Sequence record: NC_073060.1
Length of the DNA: 47,082 nucleotides
Origin: Escherichia phage vB_EcoS_WF5505
Strand: one strand, 5' to 3'
Positions 3,524 through 45,918 of this stretch are shown in pieces (position 1 is the first letter of the stretch; every line of letters starts with the position of its first letter). A program made the translations under genes and the position numbers. The notes under the pieces were generated by a model. The model ran no database searches. It had not been told where the DNA came from and worked only from the letters and a program-made list of their open reading frames with translations.

Positions 3524-3563
3524 CTTGACTTGCAACCAACATAGAGGCCATACTGCAACCAAT
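3524..3563 (+). promoter_or_regulatory. Promoter-like region with two TGCAACCAA(T/C) motif copies
   Basis: TTGACT then TGCAACCAAC (3531-3540) and TGCAACCAAT (3554-3563) upstream of small ORFs. Confidence 0.4.
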
Positions 3564-8822: not shown

Positions 8823-9909
8823 TCAACATATGGCGGATCGTATGATTCGCCGTCACATCTTCACCCAGCGCCTGAGCAATGACCAGGCGCGGCGGGTGTT
8901 GGCTATGTGGGAGAAGTTCCGGCCCACGTTACTTGGTAAGCTGACCGAGTTACTTGATGGCAAAAAGTCCATGAATAACAAGGCACTGACCACACTGTTA
9001 ACGCAAATCGACAAGACCGTCAAAACGGAACTGCGCACCGAGTTTAAGGCGCTGGCTGAAAGCCTTCAGGAGTTCGCCGACACGGAGGCTGATTATCTTG
9101 CCGATACATTAACGGCAGCGATCCAGCCAGCGGTCGCCGTACCGGCTGTTGAGGTTGTTGGCGTAGTGACTGGCGCGCAGATCGCAGCGACGGCTATGAA
9201 AAACCCATTCCAGGGTAACACCATGATGCAATGGCCCGATTCACTTTCGGAGTGGACCAGGACGCAGATCGGTAATCAGGTGCGCGCTGGATTCATCCAG
9301 GGCAAGCCGACTATGGAAATTATCGCGGACGTAAGGCGCGCTCTCGGCGGTCGTAGTGCGCAGGCAATCTCAAGCGTTGTTAAGTCCGCAGTAAACCACT
9401 ATGCGGCGACCGCCCGCGAATTAATGGTAAAAGCTAATGACGATATTCTCGAAGGTCGCCAATGGTTGGCTACATTGGATACGCATACTTCTCCCATGTG
9501 CCAGCTACGCGATCGCCTGTTTTATCCAGTTGATGTTACTCCCGACACCAAAGGAAAGCGCGGCGGGAAAGTGGTGGCTGGGTCACAATATGGCGCTGGT
9601 CCGGGCAAGCTGCATTATTGCTGCCGGTCTACGGAGACGTGGAAAGTCAAAGGCATGGAAGATTGGCCCAGTGGTAAGCGTCCGGCACTGAAGGCTGACG
9701 CGGGTCGATTGCTGAGTGAGCAGGTCGACGCGCAGACTGATTTCTTCTCATGGGTGCAGCGCCAGCCGCGCCATATTCTGGAGGAATTATATGGGGTGCA
9801 GCGCGCAGACCAGATTATGCGCGGCGTGAAAGTGCCTAAGATGTTCACCGATACCGGCGAACTAATGACTATTGCACAGCTTAAAAACCGGGGGTTATGG
9901 CGTGATTAA
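8806..9909 (+). CDS. Head morphogenesis / minor head protein (Mu F- or SPP1 gp7-like)
   Basis: 367-aa ORF following portal; assigned mainly by position. Confidence 0.5.
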   Translation: MARTINQHMADRMIRRHIFTQRLSNDQARRVLAMWEKFRPTLLGKLTELLDGKKSMNNKALTTLLTQIDKTVKTELRTEFKALAESLQEFADTEADYLADTLTAAIQPAVAVPAVEVVGVVTGAQIAATAMKNPFQGNTMMQWPDSLSEWTRTQIGNQVRAGFIQGKPTMEIIADVRRALGGRSAQAISSVVKSAVNHYAATARELMVKANDDILEGRQWLATLDTHTSPMCQLRDRLFYPVDVTPDTKGKRGGKVVAGSQYGAGPGKLHYCCRSTETWKVKGMEDWPSGKRPALKADAGRLLSEQVDAQTDFFSWVQRQPRHILEELYGVQRADQIMRGVKVPKMFTDTGELMTIAQLKNRGLWRD

Positions 9910-10210
9910 ATATGCGGCTATTGGACTGGTTATCGGTCTGGCGGTTGGATTCTGGCAGGGTGATTCCTACCGCACTGGCGTTGTGGCGAAAGCGGCGCAA
10001 GAAGCGCAAGCGAAAGCCCAACGGCAGCAAACTAAGGTTGTTGAGGGGTCGGTGAAGGCTGAGCAAGCCCGCGACGTGGAATACCGGACTATCACGAAAG
10101 AGGTTGTAAAATATGTTACGCGTCCTAACCGTCCTGATTGTAGTTTTGATGCTGAGCGCGTGCGGATCAAGCAAAGCGCCATCGACGCCGCTAACCGAGT
10201 CGGTCTATAG
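9902..10210 (+). CDS. i-spanin (Rz-like)
   Basis: N-terminal TM segment IKYAAIGLVIGLAVGFW then coiled-coil-like region; o-spanin gene embedded at its 3' end; start taken as GTG 9902 with GGGGG RBS (track start 9872). Confidence 0.6.
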   Translation: MIKYAAIGLVIGLAVGFWQGDSYRTGVVAKAAQEAQAKAQRQQTKVVEGSVKAEQARDVEYRTITKEVVKYVTRPNRPDCSFDAERVRIKQSAIDAANRVGL

Positions 10211-10343
10211 ACCGCCTTGCACCTTTGAGAATGCCTCGGCAGATCCAGACGAGGATTTGCTTGTTGATGTTAAGAATATGGAGTGTGGTGCTAAGCTAAG
10301 GGCGCAAGTGCTGGAGTTGCAGAAAATAATTCGGGGGCCGTGA
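10113..10343 (+). CDS. o-spanin (Rz1-like outer-membrane lipoprotein)
   Basis: Signal peptide with lipobox LSAC, Pro- and Cys-containing mature part; overlaps i-spanin out of frame. Confidence 0.65.
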   Translation: MLRVLTVLIVVLMLSACGSSKAPSTPLTESVYRPPCTFENASADPDEDLLVDVKNMECGAKLRAQVLELQKIIRGP

Positions 10344-10356
10344 TGGCCCCTTTTTT
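10333..10356. terminator. Bidirectional rho-independent terminator (GGGGCC-N-GGCCCC family)
   Basis: GGGGGCCGTGATGGCCCC followed by TTTTTT; separates plus-strand spanins from minus-strand island. Confidence 0.65.
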
Positions 10357-10361
10357 GTTAA

Positions 10362-10874
10362 TTACAAACGCATCGGCATGATAACTAAAAAGGCACCTCC
10401 TTTGAACAGCACGCGTGTTGCCTTGTCTACTCCCTGAAATTCCAGTTTTAAGCCCTCAAACTTATGGTCGAACAATTTAGCAATTTTGCAGGCGTCGGAC
10501 AGGTATGCCCCTTTAAACCCGATAGCCTCCACTTTATTGCTGACGAAAGACGTAACTCTTCTCCAGTCTGGAAATCGTCCGTCTACAATCTCGATGGGTA
10601 TGGTAGCTATTAATACGTCTTTACTATCGAAGAACGCGGCGGAGGTGCCGTCTATGTTGCAGTATTCGAATTTAGTAGGTAAGCGGCCTTTAATTGATAC
10701 TATTTTACTTTCACCTTCTGGTACAACCGCAGACCCGCAGAACAAACGGTGACCGTCTGTAGCCACGATGTATCCTTTCTCGTCGAAAAATACACCATTT
10801 AGGAAGTATCGGACGTCATTAGTTGCGGCGCATATCGTAGCGGCTTTAAGATCGGCGTAGTTAACTTTAATCAT
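10362..10874 (-). CDS. Truncated beta sliding-clamp (DnaN)-like protein, 170 aa
   Basis: Matches E. coli DnaN (recalled, not searched): VRYFLNGVFF, ATDGHRL, VDGRFPDWRRV and C-terminal MPMRL; start MIKVNY with GAGGA RBS. Confidence 0.7.
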   Translation of the reverse strand: MIKVNYADLKAATICAATNDVRYFLNGVFFDEKGYIVATDGHRLFCGSAVVPEGESKIVSIKGRLPTKFEYCNIDGTSAAFFDSKDVLIATIPIEIVDGRFPDWRRVTSFVSNKVEAIGFKGAYLSDACKIAKLFDHKFEGLKLEFQGVDKATRVLFKGGAFLVIMPMRL

Positions 10875-10931
10875 TTTAATTTCCTCGTGGTTATGTAGAC
10901 GATAATTCGGGGCCATTACAGCCCCCTTTTG

Positions 10932-11696
10932 TTAGCGCGGAATACCGCAGATTTCGTTTAACGTCTTCACATCCAGCGCTACTGCCGTTGACTTCGGCTT
11001 GTCCGGGTATGGAATGAATTGTTCAACTTCAGGCCACGCCGCGATCAGCTTCTTGTCAGTATTGTGCATATCCAGCACGCCGGTAACGGTTAGTTTGAAC
11101 GCGTCATACTTCGCACGCAATTCACGGCGGGCCTTGTCGTTGTGGTCCAGGCGCTTGCAGAAATCATGCTCTGCCGGGTAGTCTACGCGACCGCGTGGTA
11201 GATATATCGGCAGCGCTTTTCCGTCCTCATCCACTTCACATACTGACGCGAGCATAATTTCCTCGTACCCCGGTACAATATCGCTAACGTCAGGCGCGAG
11301 CGTATTCATATATTTTTCTTCCCAGTATCCGCGGTGCTGGCGGTAGCGGTATCCGTCGCCGCTCATATGCAGGGTACGGATGTTACCGCCTGCGTTGATT
11401 TCGAAAGTGGAGCAGTAAACGCGTCCAATGCCTTTCTGACGGTCTTTGTTATAGCTATACGTCGCCTTGTCGGTGTAAACGCTGACGCCGTACATCTGCG
11501 ACTGGTTATCGCGGATTTCTGCGATATATGCGCGTAGCTCGGCGAACGTGTGAATGCCTTCTGGCATACAGTCCAGCGTAATTGCGTACGCCAGGTCGCG
11601 AGAGGCCATCATGATTGATTTGGCTTCAGTCGCGATTTCGTGGTCGCGCAGGATGTTAGCCAGAATCTGGTTTTTAATGTCTTTTGTCAGTCTCAT
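10932..11696 (-). CDS. Hypothetical protein (254 aa), upstream partner of DnaN-like gene
   Basis: Start MRLTKD with GAGGA RBS inside track ORF 10932-11741; no recognised motif. Confidence 0.55.
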   Translation of the reverse strand: MRLTKDIKNQILANILRDHEIATEAKSIMMASRDLAYAITLDCMPEGIHTFAELRAYIAEIRDNQSQMYGVSVYTDKATYSYNKDRQKGIGRVYCSTFEINAGGNIRTLHMSGDGYRYRQHRGYWEEKYMNTLAPDVSDIVPGYEEIMLASVCEVDEDGKALPIYLPRGRVDYPAEHDFCKRLDHNDKARRELRAKYDAFKLTVTGVLDMHNTDKKLIAAWPEVEQFIPYPDKPKSTAVALDVKTLNEICGIPR

Positions 11697-11845
11697 TTGT
11701 GTTTCCTCATTGTTGGTGTGCAACCAATATAGTGCAACCAATACCTGTATTGCAAGCGAATTTTGCGATTATTTTTATCGCTGATAATATTAAAGGCGTG
11801 AAGTCGAGCGGGTGGCCCGCTCTGCCACGATCCCAGGGGGATAGC
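11697..11845. promoter_or_regulatory. Divergent promoter region with two TGCAACCAAT copies
   Basis: TGCAACCAAT at 11719-11728 and 11733-11742; candidate plus-strand sigma70 elements TTGCGA (11763-11768) and TAATAT (11785-11790). Confidence 0.45.
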
Positions 11846-12550
11846 ATGGAAATTACTAAAGCAGAATATGACGCGTTGCCGGAAGGTATGAAGGCGCTTT
11901 TTGTTGCCAATGGCGACGGGTATAAATCAACATTTATGTCCGCTGAGGAAGTACAGGCGGAAATCAAGGGTCTGAAAGACAACAACGCAAAGCTGGTGAG
12001 CGAGAAGAAAGCAGAAGCTGAACGCCGCGCCGAAGCCGAGCGCCTTGCGAAAGAGAAAGAGGAAGCCGCCGCGCGCAAAAATGGCGACCTCGAAGCGATC
12101 GATAAATCCTGGAAGGATAAGTTGGCAAAACACGAAGCTGACACATCGGGGAAAATCGAATCCTATCGCAAGCAGATCCACGACCTTACTATCGGCAGCG
12201 CTGCCAAAGACCTGGCATCGAAGCTATTTGGTAAGAATGCTGGCATCATGCAACGCCACGTAATGGAGCGCCTCGCGCTGGAAGACGGTGAAGACGGCAG
12301 CTTGAAAGTGCGTGTCTTGCAGGATGGCAAACCGTCCGCGCTGACTATGGACGAGCTTGAAAAAGAGTTCCGTAATAACGCTGATTTTGCATCCGTCCTG
12401 GCTGGCACGCCCGCCGGTGGCGCTCCGAGCAAACCGACACAGGTTATCGAAGATGCGAAGTCTAAAATCACGATGGGCCATAGCTTCGGTATCACGGACC
12501 TGACGAAACAGGCAGGGGATATCATCGCTAAGATGGGCGACGACGAGTAA
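11846..12550 (+). CDS. Putative scaffolding protein
   Basis: Charged, Ala/Glu/Lys-rich coiled-coil-like 234-aa protein directly upstream of major capsid gene; ATG with AGGGGGA RBS. Confidence 0.55.
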   Translation: MEITKAEYDALPEGMKALFVANGDGYKSTFMSAEEVQAEIKGLKDNNAKLVSEKKAEAERRAEAERLAKEKEEAAARKNGDLEAIDKSWKDKLAKHEADTSGKIESYRKQIHDLTIGSAAKDLASKLFGKNAGIMQRHVMERLALEDGEDGSLKVRVLQDGKPSALTMDELEKEFRNNADFASVLAGTPAGGAPSKPTQVIEDAKSKITMGHSFGITDLTKQAGDIIAKMGDDE

Positions 12551-27782: not shown

Positions 27783-27863
27783 GTTATCATCTCCTATATT
27801 TGGTTGAGTTTTAGTATTGCACCGCTCAATCAAGAATGCAACCAATTTTAAGAGGATTCAGCT
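27783..27863. promoter_or_regulatory. Divergent promoter region between lipoprotein and tail-fibre genes
   Basis: Contains TGCAACCAAT (27837-27846) and inverted partial copy TTGGTTGAG (27799-27807). Confidence 0.4.
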
Positions 27864-30628: not shown

Positions 30629-30680
30629 GATGTTTTCCTTTTTAGTGGGGGCCGGATTGCCCCCGACGAGATAACTATAG

Positions 30681-30702
30681 TGCAACCAACCTATTGGTTG
30701 CA
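30681..30702. promoter_or_regulatory. Perfect 22-bp palindrome TGCAACCAA-CCTA-TTGGTTGCA (operator-like)
   Basis: Read directly; lies about 53 bp upstream of the 30628 minus-strand start and spans the stop of the HAD gene. Confidence 0.6.
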
Positions 30703-31161
30703 AGTAAATTTTGCTACGTTTATAGAATAAATTTTAGGGACCATATCGCTGCACGCCCGACGGATGGCGTCAATATTCTTAGCGCAGTCTTCAATGATGA
30801 CCAGTTCGGACACGTCCGCATAGCAAACCATTTTGAACACCGCGCACGCTTTAAATTCTGGCGGTGGGGTGTCGTCCAGCATGTGGCGCATGAACAACCG
30901 GCCCGTCGGGAATACTTCCAATTGCTTGGCGGTCGTATCCCAGCATTCGCGCTGCCGGTTAGTCAGATACGCTATCTCGAAGCCTTGCTCTTTGTACATG
31001 CGCAGCAACGGCAGCATGTCCATGTTCAGGTCTTCGCGGACGTGCGCTTTGTGCCACTTCGCCCAAAAGGTTGATTTGGTTTTTATGCCGGGCACCAGGT
31101 CAGCACGCGCATCACTTGAACCATTAATAACGCCATCCAGATCACAAATCAGTAGTTTCAT
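30691..31161 (-). CDS. HAD-superfamily phosphatase
   Basis: N-terminal MKLLICDLDGVI (DxDGV HAD motif I); 156 aa. Confidence 0.7.
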   Translation of the reverse strand: MKLLICDLDGVINGSSDARADLVPGIKTKSTFWAKWHKAHVREDLNMDMLPLLRMYKEQGFEIAYLTNRQRECWDTTAKQLEVFPTGRLFMRHMLDDTPPPEFKACAVFKMVCYADVSELVIIEDCAKNIDAIRRACSDMVPKIYSINVAKFTCNQ

Positions 31162-32299: not shown

Positions 32300-32354
32300 C
32301 GTGTTGTCTCCAGGTATTAAAAAGGGCGTTCCCTTCAGAACACCCCCAATATAA

Positions 32355-32381
32355 TGCAACCAATCTCGCAATGCAACCAAT
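32355..32381. promoter_or_regulatory. Two direct TGCAACCAAT copies, 17 bp apart
   Basis: 32355-32364 and 32372-32381, intergenic, upstream of minus-strand gene starting at 32299. Confidence 0.5.
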
Positions 32382-41805: not shown

Positions 41806-41906
41806 GGTATATCTCCGATTGGTTAATTTAAGTGTTCGGTGCGGTGTGCCCCGTCAACGAGGTGAATAATAGATTGGTTGCAGGCGGGGTGTCAACAACT
41901 AATTTC

Positions 41907-44945: not shown

Positions 44946-45159
44946 AAATCCTGGATTGCATAATGCACGGCAGCATGATGAGAATTGCGGTCGTTGATGA
45001 ACTAGGCAACCAATGCGAGTTGGATAATGGAGAGTGAAAAATGCAGTTTGCAGTTACAGCAGATAGCGATCAACTTTTTCATACGCATGATTAATATTGG
45101 TTGCATTCAGCCTGGCACCCTGCTAGATTGGTTGCACACCAACGAGAGGACCAAACAAA

Positions 45160-45330
45160 ATGAAATTTCCAGTAACCATCAAAGACGGTAAATCAACTAT
45201 CACCTTCACCAGCAACGACCAGGGCACCTATGAAAGCGGGGCGACTTGCATGTCTACCCTGGACGATGTGATGATTCGTGTTAATTCCGGTAAAGCCTCG
45301 ATTGTTGACGACAACACTAAGAAGGACTGA
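45160..45330 (+). CDS. Duplicate of 104-274 (small early protein)
   Basis: Inside right repeat, identical sequence. Confidence 0.5.
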   Translation: MKFPVTIKDGKSTITFTSNDQGTYESGATCMSTLDDVMIRVNSGKASIVDDNTKKD

Positions 45331-45333
45331 ACA

Positions 45334-45639
45334 ATGAGAGCATTAATCTGGAAATACTCACGGGCCATAGCGAAGCTGGACGAAGCGAAAAACACAAACG
45401 GCAACGTAGACTATGCGCGCCAGTTTGCGGCACGGGCACACCAACACATCATGAGTGCGCTCGACGATATGGACGCCAGCATGGATGACCTGGGTCCGCT
45501 GCGTAAGGCTATCCATGAATACGCGCTGGCATTCTCCCGTGAGCGCCTGGCCTATCGCTTCGGTATTGGCGATAAGGCAGTGACAAACGTTGCCCGGATT
45601 AAAGCCCAGCGTGAGCTATTCGCCCAGCTTGCGAAATAA
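45334..45639 (+). CDS. Duplicate of 278-583
   Basis: Identical translation in ORF track. Confidence 0.6.
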   Translation: MRALIWKYSRAIAKLDEAKNTNGNVDYARQFAARAHQHIMSALDDMDASMDDLGPLRKAIHEYALAFSRERLAYRFGIGDKAVTNVARIKAQRELFAQLAK

Positions 45640-45648
45640 GAGGCCAAA

Positions 45649-45918
45649 ATGACCCGTAGACGCGCAAAACAGCTTTCGTGGCATATCCCCCTGCATTGCA
45701 TACGAATATGGGCTAAGAATGCGAATGAGGGCGATTCAGTGTTCTGGTGCTATCGCGACGACGTTAAGCCGTTGACGCAGACTCGCTACTTGCACCAGTT
45801 CGCAGCACAACACGATTTCAGGGTGCGGACTTCCTTGCAACCAATGGGGATCCGTATTACATTACGCCGGAAGCCCGCCGTTGAGCGGGTAGGCAAACAC
45901 TGGAGACTGAGCAAATGA
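45649..45918 (+). CDS. Duplicate of 593-862
   Basis: Identical translation in ORF track. Confidence 0.55.
   Translation: MTRRRAKQLSWHIPLHCIRIWAKNANEGDSVFWCYRDDVKPLTQTRYLHQFAAQHDFRVRTSLQPMGIRITLRRKPAVERVGKHWRLSK

Follow-up and report, generated by a model that had tools for sequence, protein, structure and literature searches.

A short DnaN-like protein in a Dhillonvirus genome that appears to keep the docking pocket of the bacterial sliding clamp in a form unable to close the canonical ring

The window analysed here, a stretch of 47,082 nucleotides, consists of a complete Dhillonvirus genome (45,056 bp) followed by a 2,026-bp wrap-around (1-300 = 45057-45356). Within it, the minus strand encodes a 170-aa homologue of the bacterial sliding clamp DnaN. 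Based on sequence comparison, this clamp-like protein is composed of domain II, the connector between domains II and III (DGRFPDWRRV) and the C-terminal beta-alpha-beta-beta-beta half of domain III. We propose, with slightly less than even confidence, that it is a soluble, ring-less mimic of the clamp docking site that binds peptides of the clamp-binding-motif (CBM) type. The broader view, that short DnaN-like proteins are widespread phage effectors acting as soluble beta-clamp pocket mimics that titrate CBM proteins off the host ring, is put forward more tentatively. The gene had already been annotated in GenBank; the pocket-only architecture and the hypothesis arising from it are new.

Homology, architecture and docking pocket of the clamp-like protein

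The first-pass annotation had described the product as a truncated DnaN homologue and had quoted four DnaN motifs in its support. All four are correct when compared with the E. coli K-12 DnaN sequence extracted from NC_000913.3, and the homology itself is borne out by phmmer, by a family profile and by the predicted fold, with a similarity beyond chance. A phmmer comparison with the PDB matched the clamp-like protein to DnaN residues 141-284 (E 1e-8), while a profile built from 31 family members matched DnaN with an E-value of 4.7e-28. The family profile aligns in two stretches, the first to DnaN 139-289 and the second, comprising the last third of the profile, to DnaN 311-366. The earlier assignment to domain II, the start of domain III and the last strand, with domain I and most of domain III missing, therefore stands for domain II and for the loss of domain I. 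It fails for domain III, whose whole C-terminal half (DnaN 311-366) is retained; an HMM of the C-terminal third scored 19.8 bits on DnaN 305-366 versus 0.5 bits on 245-310. The segments deleted relative to DnaN are domain I (1-125) and residues ~250-310, which represent the N-terminal half of domain III.

The homologous clamp fold is present, and the three-domain DnaN architecture is not recovered at family cut-offs (TIGR00663; PF00712, PF02767 and PF02768). PF02767 was the sole DnaN Pfam domain matched (24.2 bits, below the gathering score of 27), and TIGR00663 gave the only NCBIfam match, at a sub-threshold 28.1 bits (cut-off 137.65); no dedicated NCBIfam family for the clamp-like protein was found. 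In the predicted structure, 155 of the 170 residues superpose on the beta clamp at 2.2 A as a single rigid body, so that domain II and the half-domain of domain III are placed relative to each other in a native-like geometry. The 170-aa protein is thus made up of three spatially adjacent half-domains, IIb, IIa and IIIb. The head-to-tail dimer interface, formed by domain I with the N-terminal half of domain III (I272/L273), is lacking because both segments are absent, and the earlier statement that the fragment is unable to form a canonical ring was correct. Residues I272 and L273, whose mutation makes beta monomeric (PMC11139829), fall in the deleted N-half of domain III. Compared with E. coli DnaN (366 aa; PDB 1MMI and others), the phage protein is half the length, keeps two of the six channel-lining helices per chain and has a pI of 8.6 rather than 5.25. 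The second domain-II helix, which lines the DNA channel, has been lost in the 170-aa subfamily and kept in longer relatives.

The CBMs (QL[SD]LF-like) of Pol III alpha, epsilon and delta, of Hda, of Pol II, IV and V and of MutS and MutL dock in a hydrophobic cleft of the clamp. Subsites I and II of this pocket comprise 18 residues, which were taken from a review (PMC11139829). None of the 18 lies inside the deleted segments and 16 are identical to their E. coli counterparts, against an overall identity of 33%. The two exceptions in the phage protein are N320->K and V344->D, and V344 is one of only two pocket residues that are unconserved among real clamps (PMC11139829). Family alignments were made with 30 and with 176 members. 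Over the larger set of 176 representatives, the E. coli residue was matched with a mean identity of 0.81 in the pocket and 0.22 elsewhere (Mann-Whitney p 1.5e-8), with the caveat that DnaN in general is most strongly conserved at these same positions, so that the pocket signal is partly a product of homologue detection. As judged from these alignments, the clamp-binding-motif pocket appears to be preserved.

The clamp-like protein belongs to the short DnaN-like phage proteins of PHROG 3007 (full-length profile match, 170-270 aa), which it matches over residues 1-170 with an E-value of 4.4e-54. This is a large phage family and not a one-off fragment. An exhaustive profile search returned 192 cluster representatives at E<=1e-30, of which the best 150 are all 141-271 aa long, and among the family ORFs (E<=1e-5) called in 80 IMG/VR loci (n=74) none exceeds 253 aa. 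The tblastn search found the family in 272 phage records, the matches including a few Dhillonvirus, Kagunavirus, Skatevirus, T1-like and Jersey-like Salmonella phages, Serratia phage Eta and Burkholderia Bcep43; the PHROG 3007 proteins of these other phages are members of the same family over their full length. Many longer relatives add a helix and a C-terminal tail. Among the long-form members (P0019-P0177), 62 of 108 carry a 15-40-aa Ala- and acid-rich tail ending in -AA, an ending expected from composition in 4.4%. The tail resembles an ssrA/ClpX C-terminal degron and is absent from the window protein, which ends in MPMRL as E. coli beta does.

PHROG 3007 bears the name "RusA-like Holliday junction resolvase", which annotations derived from Pharokka/PHROG repeat (e.g. 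EP23p08 and Bas78_0042). This identity was considered and rejected, as no RusA family is among the Pfam matches at E<=1 and the predicted fold is that of a beta clamp; the RusA label on PHROG 3007 is a propagated error. Literature searches found no functional study of the short DnaN-like family.

The locus, its transcription and its distribution

Both open reading frames of the island were confirmed on the minus strand at the positions first given (Table 1). Over 10100-12000, the 1.9 kb tested, the sequence is 99.5% identical to Escherichia phage vB_EcoS-101114BS4, whose record labels the clamp-like gene "DNA polymerase III beta subunit" and the nmad5 neighbour "hypothetical protein". The GenBank product of 184 aa begins inside the intergenic hairpin (window 10875-10916; NC_073061.1 8636-9190). 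The 170-aa start at 10874 is favoured by the homologues and by a Shine-Dalgarno sequence. An embedded i-spanin/o-spanin pair, with an o-spanin lipobox of LSAC, occupies window 9872-10343 just upstream of the island. Because the spanin pair adjoins it, the island lies between the lysis (spanin) and scaffold genes and not strictly inside the head genes.

Table 1 Features of the island and sites of the phage-wide motif (window coordinates)
Feature	Position	Strand	Remarks
Clamp-like gene, 170-aa short DnaN-like protein	10362..10874	-	Domain II, II-III connector and C-terminal half of domain III; CBM pocket kept
nmad5, 254-aa Nmad5 protein (PF18757)	10932..11696	-	Core Dhillonvirus gene
GC-rich hairpin terminator	10333..10351	both strands flagged	Common to converging spanin (+) and clamp-like (-) transcripts
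Degenerate second hairpin copy, AACAAAAGGGGC...GCCCCGAATTAT	10909..10925		Between nmad5 and clamp-like gene
Sigma-70-like promoter (TTGCAA, 18 nt, TATATT)	11726..11755	-	Upstream of nmad5; consensus match only
Two exact ATTGGTTGCAC copies	11718..11742	-	Overlap nmad5 promoter; phage-wide motif
ATTGGTTGCA[C/T] motif sites	40-81, 779-789, 3553-3563, 11718-11742, 27836-27846, 30680-30703, 32354-32381, 41873-41883
ATTGGTTGCA[C/T] wrap-around copies	45096-45137, 45835-45845

The nmad5 promoter is situated within a 150-bp divergent region common to the scaffold gene. The intergenic hairpin has no T-run on the minus strand, which makes read-through from nmad5 plausible. On this basis the clamp-like gene probably owes its transcription to read-through from the nmad5 promoter, and the co-transcription of the two genes asserted in the first-pass annotation is plausible. 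The motif ATTGGTTGCA[C/T] occurs at 16 sites in the window when up to one mismatch is allowed, compared to 0.92 expected. Several of these sites form close pairs, 14-31 nt apart, and they seemingly stand ahead of transcription units. A TTGCA -35-like core lies within the motif, which probably acts as a promoter or operator specific to the phage.

The two genes of the island differ in their distribution. At an identity of at least 80%, nmad5 was detected in 143 phage records versus 14 for the clamp-like gene. The latter is sporadic and present in about 10% of Dhillonvirus records, while nmad5 belongs to the genus core; most Dhillonviruses match everything in the query region but the clamp-like gene (72% coverage). 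The position of the clamp-like gene also varies: in this phage it is downstream of nmad5, in Shigella phage EP23 it is found on the upstream side, and in Bas85 the slot upstream of nmad5 is filled by an unrelated 109-aa gene. In phage WFI, which is without the clamp-like gene, a single terminator hairpin follows nmad5. Alignment with WFI shows that a ~35-bp terminator sequence is present twice here, at the two hairpins of Table 1. The copy downstream of the clamp-like gene (10333-10351) is an intact version of the terminator that follows nmad5 in phages without that gene, and together the two hairpin copies (the other at 10909-10925) bracket an inserted cassette of ~570 bp. From its sequence, the duplicated terminator looks like the footprint of a cassette insertion at a terminator. 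The clamp-like gene is optional cargo inserted at the terminator downstream of nmad5, in a moron-like placement.

An antisense position in the head module recurs among PHROG 3007 relatives, namely in Kagunavirus fFiEco03, in a metagenomic siphovirus and in Bas78. A neighbour census covering 73 IMG/VR loci from 28 lineages placed the clamp-like gene in small antisense islands in 11 of the 28. The first-pass view of the pair as accessory cargo antisense to morphogenesis genes applies to the clamp-like gene, nmad5 being instead a core gene of the genus. Nor do the two genes constitute a fixed pair: nmad5 is core, the clamp-like gene is sporadic and found in different slots, and Nmad5 lies within 10 kb of it in only three of the 28 lineages, with none nearby in the other 25.

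The Nmad5 neighbour and gene neighbourhoods across lineages

The product of the neighbouring gene, previously described as an unrecognised partner, is a member of Pfam Nmad5 (PF18757) and has already been studied genetically in Dhillonvirus (PMC11846954). Residues 1-253 of the protein match the profile over its whole length (1-206 of 206) with an E-value of 6.8e-55 and 186.8 bits, against a gathering score of 27. Single substitutions in Dhillonvirus nmad5 (K216E/K296E) permit escape from Tmn defence; attempts to clone nmad5 encounter toxicity, and phages in which it is deleted are viable and do not escape Tmn (PMC11846954). The Nmad5 of PhiSMA8/PhiSMS22 characterized in that study belongs to the same family as the neighbour gene, and no clamp-like gene features there. 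The Dhillonvirus records found share 82-99% identity in Nmad5, and the Nmad5 alignment shows K216 to be nearly invariant. From this comparison of the records found, K216 here is probably the Tmn-escape site reported for PhiSMA8. The clamp-like protein was also considered as the Dhillonvirus anti-Tmn gene and was rejected, as anti-Tmn is ORF35, a helical rod-shaped protein. The Nmad5 name reportedly originates with Iyer et al. in 2013.

Both ends of Nmad5 are highly conserved. At the N-terminus (MRLTKDIK...), M1, R2, L3, T4, I7 and N14 are invariant. The C-terminal tail (AVALDVKTLNEICGIP, within residues 234-254) contains the invariant part AVALDVKTLNEICGIPR and is predicted by AF2 to be flexible; it could represent a short linear docking motif. 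The tail gave no match to the CBM consensus, a fold search with Nmad5 recognised no catalytic fold, and neither Nmad5 nor the clamp-like protein matched any of the PADLOC defence-system models. Nmad5 is a separate genus-core protein and not an obligate partner of the clamp-like protein. A Dhillonvirus Nmad5 (87.8% identity) was additionally encountered at 198-959 of MG065648.1, a 35-kb record named "Campylobacter phage A144", which is probably a mislabelled or contaminating coliphage sequence.

The census of IMG/VR loci revealed no conserved neighbour of the clamp-like family, in that none occurs in more than five of the 28 lineages. The commonest neighbours are an SF2 helicase, a cI-like repressor, a DUF5906 primase-polymerase, a ParB-like protein and DUF2800, with replication O also present; PolA lies within 10 kb in six of the 28 lineages and DUF2800 in five. 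The clamp-like gene and Nmad5 also occur together in Stutzerimonas phage STP9 and in a Salmonella prophage operon. There the clamp-like gene heads an operon with DUF2800, an Enc34-type SSB, Nmad5 and PolA, with Nmad5 between the SSB and PolA; the phage analysed here has the same type of replication module (DUF2800, Enc34 SSB, PolA, SNF2 and AAA_25). Comparison of the Salmonella prophages L005/L008 with L006/L007, whose replication operons are otherwise identical, shows that the slot between the Enc34-type SSB and PolA (about 10.1-11.7 kb in L005) varies, being occupied either by Nmad5 (212 aa) or by a SIR2_2 protein of 493 aa, a defence-type domain being swapped for Nmad5. The Skatevirus Bas78 encodes a clamp-like homologue and no polymerase of its own, its large unannotated proteins being helicases or AAA_24. 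In Bas78 (L015 5216-7531) the clamp-like gene is the last of a four-gene antisense operon, preceded by a ParB/KorB-like HTH protein, a C5 cytosine methylase and a 57-aa ORF. This constitutes a second case of the clamp-like gene adjoining genes of the DNA-modification type.

Proposed function, rival readings and significance

In the mechanism that we propose, the half-domains IIb, IIa and IIIb would preserve the hydrophobic CBM-docking cleft, the dimer interface having been lost with domain I and the N-terminal half of domain III. We infer that the protein is soluble, either monomeric or a small oligomer, that in this state it binds CBM-type peptides, and that it may compete with, or substitute for, the host beta2 ring as a docking site. 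Its most likely role would be that of a decoy titrating CBM-bearing host or defence proteins during infection, in the service of host takeover or counter-defence. Candidate targets of such an effector are delta, Pol III alpha/epsilon, Hda, translesion polymerases, MutS/L, or defence or mobile-element proteins that use the clamp. Hijacking, an option raised in the first-pass annotation, is viable in the form of competition for clamp clients and can now be stated more specifically. The best functional analogue is monomeric beta (I272A/L273A), a non-ring beta that keeps the pocket; it still binds delta, ~50-fold tighter than the ring does, as well as DNA, and gives no processivity support (PMC11139829). 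That protein is engineered, full-length and three-domained, whereas the phage protein is a natural form of 1.5 domains. Twort Gp168 of a Staphylococcus phage (PDB 7EVP) resembles the proposed decoy in targeting the same hub of host DNA metabolism; it is however unrelated and binds the host ring, while the protein described here is itself a phage-encoded copy of the docking site on that hub. Against a decoy is the observation that replication and early genes (SF2 helicase, primase-polymerase, DUF2800, replication O and cI-like repressor) are the commonest neighbours, so that the genomic context fits a replisome accessory as well as it fits a decoy. A pure poison of Pol III is unlikely, since a homologue occurs in the polymerase-less Bas78, which must use host Pol III.

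This replication-related context also speaks for a rather improbable alternative, in which the protein assembles with itself into a ring or arc and gives the phage replisome (family-A polymerase, SNF2 helicase and primase-helicase) processivity or a tether. The protein might, for example, dimerise through the orphan half-domain IIIb, and four copies might close 12 half-domains; the internal pseudo-twofold symmetry of the clamp fold is in favour of such an assembly. So are the proximity of PolA and DUF2800 in the lineages counted above and the match between this phage's replication module and the Salmonella prophage operon headed by the clamp-like gene. The reported clamp function of E. coli beta* points the same way. 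This UV-inducible, internal-start dnaN product, credited to Skaliter/Paz-Elizur 1996, is reported to span roughly residues 135-366 (domains II and III) and to work as a clamp. Beta* is the nearest natural precedent, being N-terminally truncated and beginning, like the phage protein, near the start of domain II, but it keeps all of domain III and reportedly forms a functional ring, whereas the phage protein is without the N-half of that domain. Several results argue against such a factor. The gene is missing from ~90% of Dhillonvirus records although the replication module is common to the genus, the phage encodes no clamp loader, the 170-aa subfamily has lost a channel-lining helix and the family is also found in phages without a polymerase. 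Moreover, a scan of the 71 annotated phage proteins with Q[AILVM]x[LM][FL] and Q[AILVM]x[LM]x[FL] located canonical CBMs at two sites (terminase and major capsid) versus 3.9 expected, with none in any replication protein. Given the sporadic gene, the lack of a clamp loader and the lack of CBMs in replication proteins, a dedicated PolA processivity factor is unlikely. The earlier suggestion that the fragment serves the phage polymerase received no direct support: the phage proteome is not enriched in CBMs, ~90% of Dhillonvirus records share the same family-A polymerase and do without the gene, and homologues occur in a polymerase-less phage.

The retained pocket is also compatible with an adaptor that would bring CBM-bearing proteins to phage DNA, recruiting host CBM enzymes (Pol III core, ligase, Pol I and MutL) to that DNA or to a phage protein held at a different surface, instead of acting as their sink. 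Occurrence in polymerase-less phages reliant on host Pol III and the DNA-binding or DNA-modifying operon partners (the ParB/KorB-like HTH and C5-methylase in Bas78, Nmad5 here) are consistent with such a role. We nevertheless hold it to have a low probability, comparable to that of the self-assembled ring, as no second interaction surface was identified, no partner is conserved (the top neighbour family reaches five of 28 lineages) and the gene is dispensable within the genus. Lower still is the probability that the protein forms a two-gene unit with Nmad5, for instance by directing to DNA a DNA-modification or replication-associated activity that Nmad5 would have. In this phage the two genes lie side by side and are probably co-transcribed, both are found in the Salmonella prophage operon, in STP9 and in three of the 28 IMG/VR lineages, and the invariant, flexible Nmad5 tail could be a docking peptide. 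However, ~90% of Dhillonvirus records have nmad5 without the clamp-like gene, gene order varies between phages, 25 lineages have no Nmad5 nearby, the tail does not fit the CBM consensus and Nmad5 has no recognisable catalytic fold. The first-pass annotation had further suggested that the fragment could poison the host clamp. Poisoning by co-assembly with host beta monomers into defective rings is suggested by a DnaN fragment 33% identical to the host protein, but it is very improbable because the head-to-tail interface has lost both its sides, namely domain I and the N-half of domain III that carries I272/L273.

In bacterial replication and repair the beta clamp acts as the central docking hub, and it is also an antibiotic target. 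Hundreds of phage genomes label the family discussed here "DNA polymerase III beta subunit" or "RusA-like Holliday junction resolvase", and neither name fits the sequence. The adjoining nmad5 is a documented determinant of Tmn sensitivity in the genus, which makes the locus relevant to phage-therapy engineering. A 19-kDa pocket module would serve as a scaffold to study and screen clamp-binding motifs and pocket inhibitors. If the proposed soluble mimic of the docking site is borne out, a ring-less pocket module would represent a new phage route to rewire or blunt host DNA metabolism, and in "hub mimicry" of this kind phages would have a new way of taking over the host or countering its defences.
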